DNA of 64,000 bases, from positions 107,235-171,234 of the IMG/VR virus record IMGVR_UViG_3300045988_061744. One strand, written 5' to 3'. Shown here one piece after another: positions 45,012 to 64,000 of the stretch. The position numbers and the translations under genes are program-made. Each line of letters begins with the position of its first letter. Position 1 is the stretch's first letter. The stretch is from a virus. A model generated the notes under the pieces. That model ran no database searches. It saw nothing but the letters and a program-made list of their open reading frames with translations, and was not told the DNA's origin.

Positions 45012-45413
45012 ATGATTACAGACTTAGAAACATTACTAAATTAGGACGAGTTTAAGAATCTCGTTGATGCAATTAATAAGAACTAGGAGTATTATCTATC
45101 AAGTAATGGTCTAACCATTAAAGCGGAATCTACAGATGATTCTTTATTCTTATTAATATCTTATGAGAGATAGAAAGAGGAAAGCTGTCTAGCTAATGAA
45201 GAAGTAGGCAAATTCCAGAAATACTTAGAATCTTTAGATGATGATTTATTTATAGATGTCTGCGAATATCTAGGAGAGTCCGAATTGAATAAAATTCAAG
45301 AATGTTTGGAAAGTGGAAAATTGGAATCAGTAAGAGCTGGAATTACTAAATTCAGAATGGCATTATCTAATGTGGTAACTATGAAAATAGAACAACTGAA
45401 AGCATATGTATGA
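45012..45413 (+). CDS. hypothetical protein, amber-recoded (3 TAG)
   Basis: With TAG read as Gln: MITDLETLLNQDEFKNLVDAINKNQEYYLSSNG...KAYV, ending at TGA. It is upstream of the suppressor tRNA. Confidence 0.45.
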
Positions 45414-45546
45414 ACAAATAGCTCAAATAAGAATACTCCTTGCTAATGTAAATGCAACCATGTAGGCTTTATTTCACGAAAACGAACAGCTAAGGAAAGA
45501 ACTAGAGAAATTGGCAGCGGAGAATAAATCTCTAAAAGAGAAATAA
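45406..45546 (+). CDS. small coiled-coil protein, amber-recoded (1 TAG)
   Basis: MYEQIAQIRILLANVNATMQALFHENEQLRKELEKLAAENKSLKEK. Confidence 0.3.
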
Positions 45547-45550
45547 ATAC

Positions 45551-45622
45551 TGCCCTATGGTGTAATGGTCAGCACAGATGACTCTAAATCATTTAGTCTG
45601 GGTTCGAATCCTAGTAGGGCAA
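45551..45622 (+). tRNA. suppressor tRNA(CTA), tRNA-Gln-like; decodes UAG
   Basis: TGCCCTATGGTGTAATGGTCAGCACAGATGACTCTAAATCATTTAGTCTGGGTTCGAATCCTAGTAGGGCA. Anticodon loop CTCTAAA (anticodon CUA). U1-A72 and a D arm identical to tRNA-Gln(TTG) at 30394-30465. Confidence 0.75.
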
Positions 45623-45639
45623 CGCCAAAATTAATAGTT

Positions 45640-45867
45640 ATGATAAATTTAAATGAGAATTATGCTGTAACTCCAACAGGAGCTAAGACCCTTATTATTG
45701 AAGAGGGAGATGATTGGAATAAAGTTTGCGATAAGGTAGTTGGATGTAGATTTGATTACATATTTGTACCTCAAGAATTTGAGAATCAAGCCTGCTACTT
45801 TCTTCCACAAATAAGTATTCAAGGAAAGCAGATAGGTAAGATATGTACTTATAAAGTAGTGAAATGA
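45640..45867 (+). CDS. hypothetical protein
   Basis: Track ORF 45565..45867 trimmed to the ATG after the tRNA. Confidence 0.4.
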   Translation: MINLNENYAVTPTGAKTLIIEEGDDWNKVCDKVVGCRFDYIFVPQEFENQACYFLPQISIQGKQIGKICTYKVVK

Positions 45868-46178
45868 AACAGTGTGCAGTCGTATTGAATGGTAATGATG
45901 TTGTCAAAGTTTCTAATTTAAAAAGAAAGTATGACAAAATAATGAGTAATCCCAATATGAAAATATTGGAAGAATGTGATAAGGAAATGCTAGATGAGAA
46001 ATACAACTACTGGAATAGAACATTAAATAGAAATATAGAAGAGGAGAAAAATGAGGAAGCAAAACTTCATCATTTTAGGAATCCAAAAACAGGTTGCACT
46101 ATAGCAAGTATCTATCCAGATTTAGAGGAATGTAAATCATATATAAAAGACTGGATGGATTATGTTAAACTTGACTGA
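45864..46178 (+). CDS. hypothetical protein
   Basis: 104-aa ORF. Confidence 0.4.
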   Translation: MKQCAVVLNGNDVVKVSNLKRKYDKIMSNPNMKILEECDKEMLDEKYNYWNRTLNRNIEEEKNEEAKLHHFRNPKTGCTIASIYPDLEECKSYIKDWMDYVKLD

Positions 46179-46346
46179 TAAATACAATGAACTAACTAAG
46201 CCAAATTTAAAAGAGTTATCTGAAACTATACTCCTAGCAGCAGAATCTTTAATTGAGATTGTTGCAGAAGAAGGAAAACAAAATGAACAATGGTTTCTAG
46301 ATTACCTAGATGAATTAAATAGACTAAGTGTAATATACTAAAATAT

Positions 46347-46583
46347 ATGGATAAAGAATTTAAATTTGAAGTCTTTATTAACGGTCAACTAATAAATATG
46401 ATAAAAGCCGGATATTTAGAAAGTACACTTAGAAGTGTTCCGGAGAATAAATCATTACTGATTGATATATGGAATGTAGTTGACAATTCAGTTAGAAATC
46501 TAATTAAAAATGGACTATATAAAGACACTACACTAGAAAAAGCAATAATTGATAATACATTTGAGGGATATGATAGACTTTAA
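46347..46583 (+). CDS. hypothetical protein
   Basis: 78-aa ORF. Confidence 0.4.
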   Translation: MDKEFKFEVFINGQLINMIKAGYLESTLRSVPENKSLLIDIWNVVDNSVRNLIKNGLYKDTTLEKAIIDNTFEGYDRL

Positions 46584-61027: not shown

Positions 61028-61028
61028 T

Positions 61029-62849
61029 ATGGCAACTATCAAATCTATAAAGGTTGGAGAAACCGTATATGACTTAAAGGCTACCTATGATGGCTCTGGA
61101 AATGTTATAGATTAGACATATGCAAAATCTAGTGCCATTCCAACTAAAGTGTCTTAGTTATAGAATGATGAAAATTATTTAAAGGAACACTAGGATATAA
61201 GTGGTTTAGCTACTAAAACGGAGTTGAAAAGTAAGGTAGATAAAGAATTAGGAAAAGGACTTTCTGAAGCTAATTACACAGAAACTGAAAAACAGAAACT
61301 TAGTGGTATTGCAGATAATGCAAATAATTATGTACACCCAACTACTTCTGGAAATAAACACATACCTGCTGGAGGAGTACTTGGATAGATTTTAACCTTT
61401 TCTGAAGATGGGACTGCATAGTGGGCAGATACTAGTACTAAGTTAGAGGAACAATTTAATGCTCTTAATACTGCTTGGGAAGAATTACAAAAAGAACAAT
61501 AGAGTCTAAGCAAACAAGTCACAGAGTTAAGCAGTAACGTAGACTTATACTCTTATGGAGTAGAATGGGATATTACCGTATCTTCTCCTATCCTTACTAG
61601 AATAGGAAACCCACTATTACATAAATCCCTCCCTATTTAGTCCGCTTACAGAGGATGTGTAGCAAATAACGGTGTGGTAAATTACTATTTATATCCGGAC
61701 GATTGGGCTTACAAAGAAGATGGAAGTACTCCTTCTGTGCTCGATGGAACTGATGGAACTGTAAGAGTCCACACTCCTAAATTTTATGGTAAATCAGGCT
61801 CTAATGGAAATAAAAGATGGGTTAGAATTTCTCTAGTAAAGCTTGATGATTCATGGGTAGAAATACCAGAACTATTAATTGACGCATATAGAAATACCGT
61901 TGATAATACTGTGTCAGCAACCCCTAAAGCTGTGTCTGTGGTCAATACTACAGAAGCATTTAGAGGTGGTGGAAATAGAGCACAATTCGATGAGTATCTA
62001 ACTACTAAACTTGATACCAAAGATGCTTTTAGAAGCGATTTAGGAAAACCTAGAACTAATGTTTCTAGAGCTAATATGAGAACTTATGCTACAAATGCAG
62101 GTTCTGAATTATTATGCTATGAATATTATAAATGGATATTCTACTGGAACTATGTAATAGAATATGCTAACTTTAACTCCCAGGCTGCCTATAATGCCGA
62201 ACTTACTTCTGATGGTTATCGTCAAGGAGGACTTGGTCCTGGAGTTACAGACTGGAGTAACTCTGCTACAAGTTGGTCTGGATATAATGGAACTTATCCT
62301 ATTACTCCATGTGGTTATTGTAATGATATTGGTAACTTCACTGGAATCAAAGATTTAGTTATTCCAGAGTGTACTGCAACAAACGAAACAGATACAGTAG
62401 CGACTAAGACATTTAAAGTTCCAAGATGGAGAGGTTTTGATAATCCATTTGGAGATATTTGGACAAACCTAGATGGAGTAGTTATTCAAAGAACTGCGGC
62501 AAATGAAATCAGTAGTGTGTATACTACCACAAACAAGGAAGAGTTTACTGACGTAATTGGCAGCAAGACCATAGCAGGATACGAGGTAGCGCAAGATGGA
62601 TACATTAAAGAGTTTGACTTAGGAGAGACAGCAGAGATTATACCATCTTCTTGTACTGGAGCCTCAGCTACAACTTATATATGTGACTACCACTCTTGCA
62701 ATGCTACCTCTACAGAGCTTCGCACGCTGCTGGTGGGCGGCCACGCGGCTTATGGCGGCAGTGCGGGTCTCGGCTGTTTCTTTTCTGGCGATGGCGTCGG
62801 CGGTGCCGCTTCCTCTGTCGGGTTTAGGACTCTAAATAGAGTATCTTAA
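61029..62849 (+). CDS. tail fibre / receptor-binding protein; DGR target 1 with C-terminal variable region, amber-recoded
   Basis: 606-aa ORF with TAG read as Gln (the track shows only 61674..62849). The C-terminus ...ELRTLLVGGHAAYGGSAGLGCFFSGDGVGGAASSVGFRTLNRVS is encoded by VR1. Confidence 0.65.
62727..62822 (+). repeat. DGR variable region VR1
   Basis: Identical to the template repeat except at about 26 positions, every one of which is an adenine in the template repeat. Confidence 0.7.
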
Positions 62850-62851
62850 GA

Positions 62852-62890
62852 TAAAATATAGAAAATCGATTTAGATATAAATCGTAGGAT
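62852..62890. other. hairpin / palindrome between VR1 and the template repeat (candidate IMH-associated stem-loop)
   Basis: AAATCGATTTAGATATAAATCG gives stem CGATTTA/TAAATCG; AAATCGATTT is itself palindromic. Confidence 0.3.
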
Positions 62891-62925
62891 ATTACTTCTA
62901 AAAACCGTTGATTGGCAAAAAAGAA

Positions 62926-63021
62926 CTGCTAGTAGGCAGCAACGCGAATAATGGCAGCAATGCAGGTCTCAGCTATTTCAATTCTAACAATGACGTCAGC
63001 AATGCCAATTCCAATGTCGAG
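62926..63021 (+). repeat. DGR template repeat
   Basis: Non-coding copy (no start codon; preceded by TAA). A-rich version of VR1 and VR2 (30 A in about 93 nt). Confidence 0.7.
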
Positions 63022-63146
63022 TTATTATATATTTAGAACAATTTATTTTATTTTTTTAGTTTGCTAAGTAATATCCTTGCCTCTAGGCAAAAGACAACGT
63101 AGTGTTAAATGAAGGGTGTTAGTAGGTTAAATCTCGAAAGCTTCCG

Positions 63147-64000
63147 ATGAAATATATAAAAATTGAAACGTGTAGGATATTTGCACGAACGAGTGTATGA
63201 TTTGAAAAACATCGAATTAGCTGATGATAAGGCTAGAAGAAATAAATCAATTCGATGTGGTATTAAGTAGCATGATAAGAATAGATTAGAAGAAAATAAG
63301 GAATTATCAGACAAATTAAAATAGCTAATCTATTAGACTTCTGAATATAGTACATTTATAATATATGAGCCTAAAGAAAGATTAATCTTTAGACTTCCAT
63401 ATTACCCTGATAGAATCACTCATCATGCTATAATGAATATTATGGAACCTATCTGGACCAGTATTTTTATAGATTAGACATATTCCTCTATAAGAAACAG
63501 AGGGATTCATAAGGTAGAGTATGATTTATTCAAGGTATTGTAGAAATACTCAGATGAAACTAAATACTGCCTAAAAATGGATATAAGAAAATTTTATCCA
63601 TCTATAACACATGACATCCTGTATGAGATGTTGTAGAAGAAAATAAAGGATAAGAAACTGTTAAGTCTATTGAAGGAAATAATATATTCAGCCAAAGGAG
63701 TTCCTATTGGAAACTATCTATCATAGTTCTTTGCAAATTTATATCTGACATATTTTGACCACTGGATAAAAGAGGAGTTAAAATGTAAGTACTACTTTCG
63801 ATATGCTGACGATATTGTGATTCTTGGTAATGACAAGAATTATTTGAGAAATGTATTAGTATCTATAAAACTGTATTTGAAACAAGTTCTTAATTTAGAA
63901 TTAAAACCTAACTACTAGATATTTCCAGTAGAAAGTAGAGGAGTAGATTTTGTAGGTTACAAATTTTATCACACTCACGTTCTATTAAGAAAATCTATAA
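63147..64000 (+). CDS. DGR reverse transcriptase (partial, continues beyond window), amber-recoded; frame change needed near the start
   Basis: Frame-1 translation with TAG read as Gln: ...YEPKERLIFRLPYYPDRITHHAIMNIMEPIW...MDIRKFYPSI...GVPIGNYLSQFFANLYL...YYFRYADDIVILGN...SRGVDFVGYKF. This shows the RT motifs including YADD and resembles the Bordetella phage bRT N-terminus. ATG 63147 is in frame 0 and the RT body is in frame 1 from about 63160, across an A5 run. Confidence 0.7.

Follow-up and report, generated by a model that had tools for sequence, protein, structure and literature searches.

In-frame TAG codons as predicted glutamine codons in packaging, virion, retroelement and homing-endonuclease genes of an apparently crAss-like gut phage

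Amber recoding with CTA suppressor tRNAs has already been well documented for crAss-like phages of the Zeta group (Yutin et al. 2021, PMC7886860; PMC12386605; bioRxiv 10.1101/2021.08.26.457843), for which the family 'Echekviridae' has been proposed, with ctHMy13, ctoVY1, cthgQ11 and 3717_85572 as examples (PMC12386605, Table 1). TAG-recoded phages have also been described among ~105 kb crAss-like phages and in the Lak, Garnet and Topaz clades (Borges et al., bioRxiv 10.1101/2021.08.26.457843), and metaproteomic evidence exists for code 15 (Peters et al. 2022, PMC9523058). The recoding reported here, for a viral DNA stretch of 64,000 nucleotides (the window), is real but not new.

The window has a number of features in common with the Zeta phages: a genome of ~176-193 kb (for the window, the size of its relatives) with a GC content of ~35%, 23-28 tRNAs in a large block that includes a CTA suppressor, structural genes in which TAG is a sense codon, a DGR that is aimed at the tail fibre and has a recoded reverse transcriptase (RT), numerous homing endonucleases, a skew minimum from which two divergent gene blocks start, and a terminase large subunit (TerL) distant from that of other Crassvirales. 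For the window TerL, 2,486 homologs were identified in the protein database, and its identity to Crassvirales TerL is 23-29% (tblastn). Because of the TerL similarity, the relatives of 178-193 kb, the tRNA block and the retroelement, the window probably originates from a crAss-like human-gut phage of ~185 kb belonging to the Zeta group; the Zeta label is based on shared features rather than on a TerL tree including named Zeta genomes. The first-pass annotation had mentioned crAss-like phages for comparison, and this is more than an analogy, since the phage itself appears to be of this type. A second, divergent tRNA(CUA) beside a RAGATH-14 RNA and a tmRNA, both present in the window, are unmentioned in PMC7886860 and PMC12386605. 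With the recoded phages of Borges et al. the window shares TAG as Gln together with a phage suppressor tRNA, a concentration of recoding in structural genes, the compatibility of DNA-metabolism genes with the standard code, recoded homing endonucleases in early regions, and depletion of the reassigned codon as terminator. However, the window phage belongs to a different, much larger lineage, and neither a preferentially recoded lysis cassette nor a 'code-change module' with a release factor or aminoacyl-tRNA synthetase was seen within the window.

UAG is a sense codon in the packaging, virion, retroelement and homing-endonuclease genes. All 13 genes called at 49.6-64 kb contain in-frame TAG (130 among 4,534 codons; 56% of the TAG+CAA+CAG codons), and none contains an in-frame TAA or TGA. 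On the plus strand from 49.8 kb onwards, long stop-to-stop ORFs appear only with TAG treated as a sense codon. When 52-64 kb is divided into three 4-kb bins, the fraction covered by ORFs of 150 aa or more rises from 0.16, 0.00 and 0.30 under code 11 to 1.00, 0.96 and 0.87 with TAG as sense; making TGA sense left the coverage by such ORFs in 4-kb bins unchanged. Off frame, TAA+TGA occur at 0.077 per codon, and at this frequency the probability of finding neither codon in frame is ~1e-27 for TerL and ~1e-25 for the portal gene. The base after TAG is distributed as after any codon (p = 0.2), and this absence of sequence context therefore points to a general reassignment. Compared with CAA/CAG sites, the first TAGs showed no significant tendency to lie nearer the 5' ends of genes (permutation p = 0.21). 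TAG terminators are almost absent from the whole window, which supports TAA and TGA as the only terminators, as in code 15.

It had been claimed that reading TAG as Gln restores long ORFs with phage domains, and the restored proteins do match terminase, portal, tail and RT families. All genes of this module lie on the plus strand. Three small recoded genes (49599-50992; 1, 7 and 3 in-frame TAGs), with phrog_16390 matching 50432-50992, precede the gene for TerL (50995-53355; 786 aa, 15 TAGs, phrog_6681 8e-60), which ends at TGA. The portal gene (53553-55724; 723 aa, phrog_6547 5e-41) ends at TAA, both stops having been predicted correctly; it has 35 TAGs, 62% of its TAG+CAA+CAG codons. Six recoded virion-module genes follow, at 55726-56460 (7 TAGs), 56471-57199 (2), 57165-57392 (3), 57355-58944 (19), 58944-60812 (23) and 60818-61027 (2), with orthologs in relatives L001-L004. 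A tail-fibre or tail protein of 606 aa is encoded at 61029-62849 (phrog_5302 4.6e-83), with all eight TAGs in its N-terminal third and the DGR variable region in its C-terminus. The ORF of the DGR RT (63160-64000; RVT_1 1.6e-18, phrog_1423 1.5e-96) is cut by the window end and has eight TAGs in the part inside the window. The motifs YTITGDNYFFLNFYq, LLIYDEAGSW, YNYYNG and YADD, the last in the RT, were all recovered, as was the Gln-rich coiled coil, located at the C-terminus of the portal protein.

Almost no long ORFs remain in this region under code 11, as would also be the case for pseudogenes, sequencing or assembly errors, or a decaying or chimeric contig. However, of the three stop codons just one breaks up the frames, frameshifts are absent, and coding potential runs on across every TAG. 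Moreover, the same genes are TAG-bearing in ~60 contigs (100-190 kb) that were assembled independently and whose TerL genes have 11-31 TAGs each, often in the same columns, and the cognate tRNA is conserved. The reading as error or decay is thus refuted for practical purposes.

Aligned codon by codon with over 20 relatives, TAG interchanges mainly with CAA and CAG and falls on Gln codons, not on gaps or stops, which at the sequence level shows it to stand for Gln. Over all orthologous late genes of four relatives, the codons aligned with TAG were TAG (378), CAA (82), CAG (39), AAA (37) and GAA (37). CAA is two mutations away from TAG and yet is its commonest partner, and therefore synonymy rather than mutational proximity is indicated. 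Assignment of TAG to another amino acid (Glu, Lys, Tyr, Trp, Leu, Ser or pyrrolysine) is very unlikely, even though Glu and Lys codons come next after those for Gln among the partners and ARAGORN labels both tRNA(CUA) genes of the window 'Pyl'. This label reflects merely the CUA anticodon, and no pyrrolysine synthesis genes were seen in the window. The substitution profile has a log-likelihood of -1065 under Gln and of -1479 under Glu, the next best, so that Gln is favoured by more than 400 log units, and in columns with invariant Gln in the relatives TAG alternates with CAA and CAG only. Two standard-code relatives (L063 and L068) have a TAG-free TerL which is 50% identical to that of the window. 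At the TAG columns Gln makes up 15-24% of their residues, against a background of 2.8%; Glu is also enriched there and commoner than Gln. Since Gln/Glu exchange is expected, this comparison alone cannot separate the two residues.

A suppressor tRNA with the anticodon CUA, designated Sup-B and probably of the Gln type, is encoded at 45551-45623 (ARAGORN cta; Rfam tRNA model 66.3 bits), on the strand of the packaging and virion module, with the terminase gene 5.4 kb downstream. Among the tRNAs of the window it is closest to the ordinary tRNA-Gln(UUG) of the phage (30393-30465, minus strand; 71% identity), from which type it appears to be derived; it is unlike tRNA-Glu, tRNA-Lys and the atypical tRNA-Pyl. 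A plus-strand tRNA(CUA) upstream of TerL was present in 46 of 64 IMG/VR relatives, 13 of the 21 pairs of the cloverleaf show compensatory changes, and the anticodon-loop part CUCUAA is invariant among the suppressors. Comparative analysis thus showed Sup-B to be a conserved, structurally sound cognate tRNA for UAG. In E. coli, supE (glnV) is a tRNA-Gln with a CUA anticodon, which competes with RF1 at UAG and inserts Gln there; it is a weak chromosomal suppressor, and its genome still uses TAG as a stop. Sup-B resembles supE in having a tRNA-Gln-like body with CUA, but is phage-borne, in a phage genome purged of TAG terminators. A second tRNA(CUA), Sup-A (43081-43151, minus strand; 71 nt with a short D-arm, ARAGORN cta, Rfam tRNA model 43.9 bits), is located 29 nt downstream of a RAGATH-14 RNA. 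Its orthologs keep the acceptor and T arms and vary in the anticodon loop; most have CUA, L024 has UUA, and L012, L013 and L031 have aberrant loops. A scan of the ~70 window proteins revealed neither a release factor nor GlnRS nor an amidotransferase, roughly two thirds of the genome lying beyond the window.

The first plus-strand gene (45012-45413; 133 aa, three in-frame TAGs) lies upstream of Sup-B; it has homologs in L002 (51% identity) and L003 and gave no PHROG match. Its position before Sup-B, as well as the opposite transcription direction of Sup-A, speaks against a simple order in which the suppressor comes first.

According to the first-pass annotation, every gene from about 45 kb onwards is broken by TAG and the genome is split there by code usage. 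The former holds for 49.6-64 kb, but at 44.9-49.6 kb only five of the 12 called genes contain TAG and seven lack it. The gene table shows a largely TAG-free island on both strands at 45640-49612, with a TAG-free ORF (45640-46583) and TAG-free genes for an exonuclease (47546-48460; phrog_298 2.4e-23), a Zn-ribbon protein (48612-49001) and a GroES-like protein (49010-49612; phrog_3188 2e-6), all on the plus strand. One TAG each occurs in three small ORFs (46570-46785, plus; 46823-47014 and 47090-47431, minus).

The minus-strand block (1-44757) comprises metabolic and accessory genes, ~28 tRNA genes and a conserved phage tmRNA. TAG density is indeed uneven: the late genes have 28.7 TAGs per 1000 codons and this block 2.5, with 59 of its 69 called genes TAG-free. 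The long TAG-free ORFs reported there exist (15410-17425, 671 aa; 31011-32984, 657 aa; 5493-6707, 404 aa; all minus), but TAG is also present in four of the five homing endonucleases and in a gene for a conserved 396-aa protein. The endonucleases, all on the minus strand, are encoded at 10202-10915 (nine TAGs with a positive coding score on both sides; phrog_559 HNH endonuclease 8e-36), 27466-28110 (GIY-YIG, three TAGs; PF01541 8.5e-11 and NUMOD1), 28281-28718 (HTH and HNH, one TAG) and 37436-37822 (HNH_3, two TAGs, both in the zinc-ribbon region). The 396-aa gene (40439-41629, minus; six TAGs), directly downstream of a Pistol ribozyme, is the main recoded gene of the block apart from endonucleases; each of the seven segments into which the TAGs divide it has a positive coding score, and 33 homologs place TAG 29 at a conserved Gln. 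The boundary separates gene classes (packaging, virion, DGR and homing endonucleases from metabolism and the tRNA block) and is not a single coordinate. Terminators in the block are TAA (50) and TGA (18), and only two clear genes possibly end at TAG: the PRPP-synthetase-like gene (4300-5118, minus), with TAG-TAA, and 10912-11349, with TAG followed by six codons and TGA. Since TAG almost never terminates there either, the block is code-neutral rather than standard-code.

Only one peptidoglycan (cell-wall) hydrolase is recognisable in the window, and its gene (17641-18138) has no TAG. This, like the lack of a significant 5' shift of the first TAGs, speaks against gating.

Taken as a whole, translation of UAG as Gln in a subset of genes through a phage suppressor, with a partition by gene class that may act as a gate, is considered highly probable. 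It would be extremely unlikely for the host itself to use TAG as Gln and the phage simply to match it with no switch, since TAG would then be expected in every class of gene, while ~85% of the minus-block genes are free of it, and since the phage has its own suppressor. Prevotella, Phocaeicola and Lachnospira are standard-code genera. They are the predicted hosts of related amber-suppressing Zeta phages (PMC12386605, Table 1), and recoded phages have been reported from standard-code hosts (Borges et al., bioRxiv 10.1101/2021.08.26.457843). It is possible, though rather doubtful, that with the same decoding the suppressor serves mainly to harm the host by read-through of TAG-ended host genes, including defence genes, and that the late in-frame TAGs arose through codon capture and are merely tolerated, the AT-rich genome having already given up TAG stops. 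TAG is shunned as terminator window-wide and not just in late genes, it has no 5' bias inside genes, and its in-frame density in late genes equals the off-frame value of 28.9 per 1000, as expected of neutral drift; CTA suppressors persist in some Zeta phages that lack in-frame TAG altogether (PMC12386605), and the phage tmRNA could relieve ribosomes run off host messages after read-through. However, drift alone leaves unexplained why the TAG-free minus-block genes and the exonuclease/GroES island avoid a codon found several times in every virion gene and in most homing endonucleases, and the partition by gene class looks to be under selection. Harm to the host would be compatible with gating.

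For decoding by the phage suppressor, we infer that Sup-B is aminoacylated by a host or phage Gln-charging pathway and, when abundant, would outcompete release factor 1 at UAG, with UAA and UGA staying the sole terminators. Genes expressed before the suppressor (metabolic, tRNA, nuclease and chaperone genes) would be read alike under both codes, UAG being absent from them both as sense codon and as stop, save for the two backed-up exceptions. In the packaging, virion, DGR and homing-endonuclease genes UAG occupies 36-62% of Gln positions, and under the standard host code these would yield N-terminal stubs of 3 to 79 residues. A role in late-gene timing is a published proposal which goes beyond what the window sequence demonstrates. 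The partition may act as a translational gate which would delay the late proteins and the endonucleases.

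Gene orientation and GC skew switch abruptly at about 44.8 kb in the window, which has a GC content of 35.5%. On the plus strand past 49.8 kb, stop-to-stop open reading frames are long solely when TAG is taken as a sense codon. Such frames were identified at 50977-53355 (793 aa, 15 TAG, ending in TGA), 53481-55724 (748 aa, 35 TAG, ending in TAA), 57349-58944 (532 aa, 19 TAG, TAA), 58926-60812 (629 aa, 23 TAG, TAA), 61020-62849 (610 aa, 8 TAG, TAA) and from 63160 to the end of the window, where the frame is still open after 280 aa and 8 TAG. The terminase large subunit (TerL) and the portal protein, with 15 and 35 in-frame TAG codons, have otherwise intact frames and end in TGA and TAA, respectively, as the first-pass annotation had read them from the sequence; the motifs quoted there were all found in the window. 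For 52-64 kb, split into three bins of 4 kb, coverage by frames of at least 150 aa was 0.16, 0.00 and 0.30 with code 11, and 1.00, 0.96 and 0.87 with TAG as sense, and no gain in coverage was obtained in this region when TGA was taken as sense.

Genes were called with a codon-usage score, for which long frames unbroken in the standard code served as the training set. TAG is present in 13 of the 13 genes called at 49.6-64 kb, referred to here as the late genes (130 TAG in 4,534 codons), and neither TAA nor TGA was found in frame in any of these codons. Out of frame, TAA and TGA together occur at 0.077 per codon, from which the chance of an open frame of this length is calculated as about 1e-27 for TerL and about 1e-25 for the portal. 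The coding potential was positive in nearly all TAG-delimited segments of useful length. The first TAG of late genes with 150 aa or more is located at codons 3 to 79, so that translation with the standard code would give stubs only. This showed that TAG is recoded in the late genes.

Glutamine had been proposed as the meaning of TAG, and the comparison with homologs bore this out. In 11 of the 15 TAG columns of TerL, homologs from the protein database carry Gln nearly without exception, a count which is partly circular because these proteins were predicted by a caller aware of code 15 ('translates_to_query: no'), in which TAG is read as Gln and TAA and TGA are stops. Codon-level comparisons were used in place of such residue counts. 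In TerL of three relatives, the TAG columns carry CAA or CAG in other genomes, especially at columns with an otherwise invariant Gln. Across all late orthologs in four relatives, the codons paired with TAG were TAG (378), CAA (82), CAG (39), AAA (37) and GAA (37). CAA is the commonest partner though it is two mutations away, which argues for synonymy and not for mutational proximity. When the likelihood of this partner profile was calculated under the substitution profile of each amino acid, Gln was best with -1065, followed by Glu with -1479. Two related IMG/VR loci, L063 and L068, encode a TerL without TAG that is 50% identical to that of the window, and they serve as standard-code relatives. 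Here, Gln makes up 15% of residues at columns with any TAG and 24% at columns with frequent TAG, compared to a background of 2.8%; Glu is likewise enriched at TAG columns, as expected from Gln/Glu exchange. The more distant homologs, those of Fpv20 (standard code) and cr109_1 (itself with 6 TAG), are mostly too divergent to be informative for single columns. Site-specific read-through was also considered, and no nucleotide context was identified around TAG (p = 0.08 to 0.2). The codon partners, the substitution profile, the standard-code relatives and the lack of a local context together argue for a general reassignment of the code 15 type, and at the level of sequence comparison Gln is shown to be the meaning of TAG. 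For two other crAss-like phages, Peters et al. (PMC9523058) report peptide evidence for Gln at UAG.

The restored TerL and portal both have homologs in the databases. Pfam gave no match for these two proteins, and the only restored late protein it recognised was the reverse transcriptase (RVT_1, 1.6e-18). With PHROGs, TerL was assigned to phrog_6681 (8e-60), the portal to phrog_6547 (5e-41), a tail protein to phrog_5302 (4.6e-83) and the reverse transcriptase to phrog_1423 (1.5e-96). In a tblastn search of GenBank phages, TerL was 23-29% identical to Crassvirales terminases (Suoliviridae and others; cr109_1, cr60_1, crAss001) and 24% identical to those of Flavobacterium Fpv phages. A large protein collection contained 2,486 TerL homologs, the closest being 74-93% identical and encoded on contigs of up to 196 kb. 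In IMG/VR, 64 related loci were identified, many of them with a TerL 98% identical to that of the window; contigs are mostly 178-193 kb long, also for relatives with a TerL 89-98% identical, compared to a range of 145-192 kb for genomes of the Zeta group among the crAss-like phages. Of the crAss-signature type, the window proteins scanned gave a single match, a ResIII/DEAD helicase fragment at 3-827; the signature set comprised MCP, IHF, giant RNAP-like proteins, primase and the DnaB and SNF2 helicases, which otherwise lie outside the window or went unrecognised. A release factor, an aminoacyl-tRNA synthetase or an amidotransferase was not found among the about 70 window proteins scanned. In some close relatives (L053, L065, L004) about 1.2 kb is added to the TerL gene, and an intein is indicated in the database TerL P0003 (1131 aa) by its Hint and LAGLIDADG domains. 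The exonuclease gene at 47546-48460 has an ortholog in L004 that codes for 640 aa and shows a faint match to LAGLIDADG. In the window, TerL and the exonuclease are without these insertions.

The density of in-frame TAG is far from uniform. The block of minus-strand genes at 1-44.8 kb contains 69 genes, 10 of them with TAG, at 2.5 TAG per 1000 codons, and these genes are terminated by TAA (50) or TGA (18). At 44.9-49.6 kb, 5 of 12 genes contain TAG (5.1 per 1000; TAA 7, TGA 5), and for the late genes the density is 28.7 per 1000 (TAA 10, TGA 2). One minus-block and one late gene that run off the window are excluded from the terminator counts. The first-pass annotation had genes broken by TAG from about 45 kb onwards. 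This holds for the first plus-strand gene (45012-45413), which contains 3 TAG and makes the start coordinate chosen there a fair boundary, and for the late genes, but not for those in between: four small ORFs at 45640-46583, the exonuclease gene (phrog_298, 47546-48460), a gene at 48612-49001 and a GroES-like gene at 49010-49612, all on the plus strand, contain none.

The block at 0-44.7 kb, in turn, for which long TAG-free frames had been noted, is not entirely free of TAG. Among the five endonuclease genes, all on the minus strand, 9 TAG were found in that of phrog_559 (10202-10915), 3 in the GIY-YIG gene (27466-28110), 2 in the HNH_3 gene (37436-37822), 1 in the HTH and HNH gene (28281-28718) and none in the HNH_2 gene (20405-20968). 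A conserved 396-aa protein (40439-41629, minus) has 6, one of which is aligned with a strongly conserved Gln. These four endonuclease genes with TAG and the gene for the 396-aa protein are the convincing cases in the minus block; several other TAGs there lie within the first about 20 codons and are probably due to wrongly set starts. As a possible terminator in the minus block, TAG was identified in two clear cases only, both on the minus strand and both with a back-up stop: the gene at 4300-5118 ends in TAG-TAA, and the gene at 10912-11349 ends in TAG followed by six codons and TGA. The minus block is thus code-neutral and not a standard-code region. A split of the genome by code usage had been proposed, and the uneven distribution of TAG stands; the split itself follows gene class and not one coordinate. 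Both this partition by gene class and the elimination of TAG from the set of terminators were shown by the gene calls.

In the window, 28 tRNAs were identified by ARAGORN and two more by Rfam, and in two of these the anticodon is CUA. The first, Sup-B (45551-45623, plus), is located 5.4 kb upstream of TerL. The closest of the 29 other tRNAs of the window is tRNA-Gln(UUG), with 71% identity compared to at most 68% for the rest; both share U1-A72, G2-C71, G10, the D-arm, the 3' end and the discriminator A. A plus-strand tRNA(CUA) upstream of TerL is present in 46 of 64 IMG/VR relatives. When seven distinct versions of Sup-B were aligned with tRNA-Gln, the cloverleaf was evident with compensatory changes in 13 of 21 pairs, and the CUCUAA of the anticodon loop was invariant among the seven. 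Judged by this pattern of conservation, Sup-B is a functional tRNA under selection, and the comparisons show that a conserved, predicted cognate tRNA for TAG is encoded in the window.

The other tRNA(CUA), Sup-A (43081-43151, minus), is shorter and lower-scoring than Sup-B and has no clear affinity to other tRNAs of the window. Among its orthologs the acceptor and T arms are kept and the anticodon loop is variable; the anticodon is mostly CUA but UUA in L024, and the loops of L012, L013 and L031 are abnormal. A RAGATH-14 RNA (43181-43374, minus, 181 bits) was identified 29 nt upstream on the same strand, and a similar sequence is present at the matching position in 11 relatives, including several with an altered Sup-A anticodon loop. 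To our knowledge, no function has been established for the RAGATH-14 motif, and a limited literature search returned nothing on it. Sup-A, fast-evolving and paired with RAGATH-14, may act as a regulatory RNA or a decoy, or else as an ochre/amber switch, and not as a plain decoder. Other RNAs were identified in the minus block. A Pistol self-cleaving ribozyme (41691-41759, minus, 63 bits) fills the gap between 41759-42094 and the recoded gene at 40439-41629, and its cleavage would split the message for the 396-aa protein from that of the upstream gene. The two tRNAs called by Rfam and missed by ARAGORN lie at 23468-23540 and 24404-24485 (both minus); one reads as tRNA-Ala(UGC), and in the other the anticodon loop has about 15 nt, which may be due to an insertion or a small intron or mark a non-standard decoder.

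A tmRNA at 21202-21757 (minus; Rfam RF00023, 74.2 bits), with a 269-nt insertion compared to the model, was likewise missed by ARAGORN. The predicted tag is AEIAPVRMAA, followed by UAA. The 3' end is exactly kept in 29 IMG/VR contigs, a set which overlaps with the TerL relatives; 13 of the 13 contigs in which the tag was located have it in identical form. Two papers on Zeta phages (PMC7886860, PMC12386605) do not mention a tmRNA. The phage tmRNA may be related to the rescue of ribosomes after read-through of host TAG stops, in which case the code change would be linked to trans-translation.

From established knowledge of supE-type suppression and of the competition between RF1 and suppressors, Sup-B would be charged with Gln and compete with RF1. 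TAG-free genes would then be translatable from the start of infection, and TAG-containing genes would need enough suppressor. Following the hypothesis of Borges et al. (bioRxiv 10.1101/2021.08.26.457843), the partition would delay the virion proteins and the homing endonucleases. Sup-B is located near the head of the plus-strand block that holds the virion genes; the recoded gene at 45012-45413 lies upstream of it, and a gene with a glucosaminidase domain (17641-18138) is TAG-free. Such a gate might predict a shift of TAG to the 5' ends of late genes, which was not significant when the first TAG was compared to CAA/CAG sites (p = 0.21); for TAG position within late genes a Mann-Whitney test gave p = 0.056. 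A scan for sigma-70 promoters around the strand switch stayed at chance level, with 22 found and 22.2 expected, and is uninformative as to the order of transcription. Alternatively, the main effect of the suppressor may be to impair the expression of host genes (PMC7886860, PMC12386605); in-frame TAG would then have piled up where it is tolerated, a reading which is compatible with the delay of late genes. It appears unlikely that the amber system has more parts than the published picture of one suppressor tRNA, with Sup-A and RAGATH-14 and the tmRNA acting in addition to Sup-B.

Downstream in the late genes, a diversity-generating retroelement (DGR) was identified which, from its sequence, is complete and apparently active. 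It consists of a variable repeat (62727-62824), a template repeat (62926-63023), a reverse transcriptase gene (63160-64000) and the target gene (61029-62849). The tail-fibre gene carries the variable repeat of 98 bp at its C-terminal end, and the template repeat lies 100 bp downstream, followed by the reverse transcriptase gene, which is itself amber-recoded. The two repeats differ at 26 positions, all at template adenines (26 of 30). They were found by local alignment and were missed by a seed-based repeat search, since the adenine mismatches break the seeds. In the tail-fibre gene (plus strand), all 8 TAG lie within the first about 205 codons, and the C-terminal 402 codons, which contain the phrog_5302 match and the DGR target, are free of TAG. 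This C-terminus could be a recent modular acquisition from a standard-code phage.

The minus block also contains a number of accessory genes. A cluster for NAD salvage is located at 4300-7054 (minus), in which nicotinamide phosphoribosyltransferase is encoded by two overlapping ORFs, with NAMPT_N at 6686-7054 and an NAPRTase domain at 5493-6707; a frameshift or a split gene could account for this arrangement. Nearby, the gene at 4300-5118 with the TAG-TAA end codes for a protein similar to ribose-phosphate pyrophosphokinase. The minus-strand gene at 17641-18138 codes for a peptidoglycan hydrolase domain of the glucosaminidase type with an N-terminal membrane anchor and is possibly a lysin outside the recoded gene set. 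Genes odd for a phage were identified at 7909-8736, 9174-10190, 31011-32984 and 37972-38931 (all minus); their products include two SPFH/Band-7 proteins, of which one has 657 aa and a long repeat region rich in Ala, Glu and Lys. An OmpA-like protein of the outer membrane, with a beta-barrel domain, and a weak match to a radical-SAM enzyme are also among them.

The Zeta group is characterized by genomes of 145-192 kb with dense introns and inteins and with many tRNAs, suppressors among them; TAG or TGA is reassigned mainly in late genes (PMC7886860). Several Zeta genomes have 176-189 kb, about 35% GC and 23-27 tRNAs, and they combine a CTA suppressor and amber suppression with a DGR; the reverse transcriptase genes of the DGRs were noted to contain amber codons, and tandem TAG-TAA ends were likewise reported (PMC12386605). 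Their genes form two divergent blocks from the origin, one with nucleic-acid metabolism, tRNAs and homing endonucleases and one with virion, packaging and DGR genes (PMC12386605). It has also been described that the reassigned codon is depleted among terminators and that a homing endonuclease inside an early gene is recoded (Borges et al., bioRxiv 10.1101/2021.08.26.457843). The window matches this group in its 28-30 tRNAs, its five endonuclease genes and a DGR aimed at the tail fibre; the intein was identified in the TerL of a relative (P0003) and not in that of the window. The label Zeta group (proposed Echekviridae) is suggested by these shared features and not by a tree with named Zeta sequences.

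Since every main feature has already been described for this lineage, the recoding of TAG identified here is a known phenomenon to which no new principle is added. The original observation was confirmed, and its interpretation is supported in a refined form, with a partition by gene class and a code-neutral other block. What is of interest here is mostly the correct annotation, along with side observations like the DGR, the tmRNA and RAGATH-14. With the standard code, this very common gut phage is annotated with a packaging and virion module that is wholly broken into fragments, and reading TAG as Gln recovers TerL, the portal, the tail fibre and the DGR reverse transcriptase intact. With more than 60 near relatives in IMG/VR, this is a clean and well-sampled case of partial recoding by gene class, and the recoded homing endonucleases in a code-neutral block, together with the purged TAG terminators, make it a good system in which to ask whether recoding is a gate, a weapon against the host, or both.
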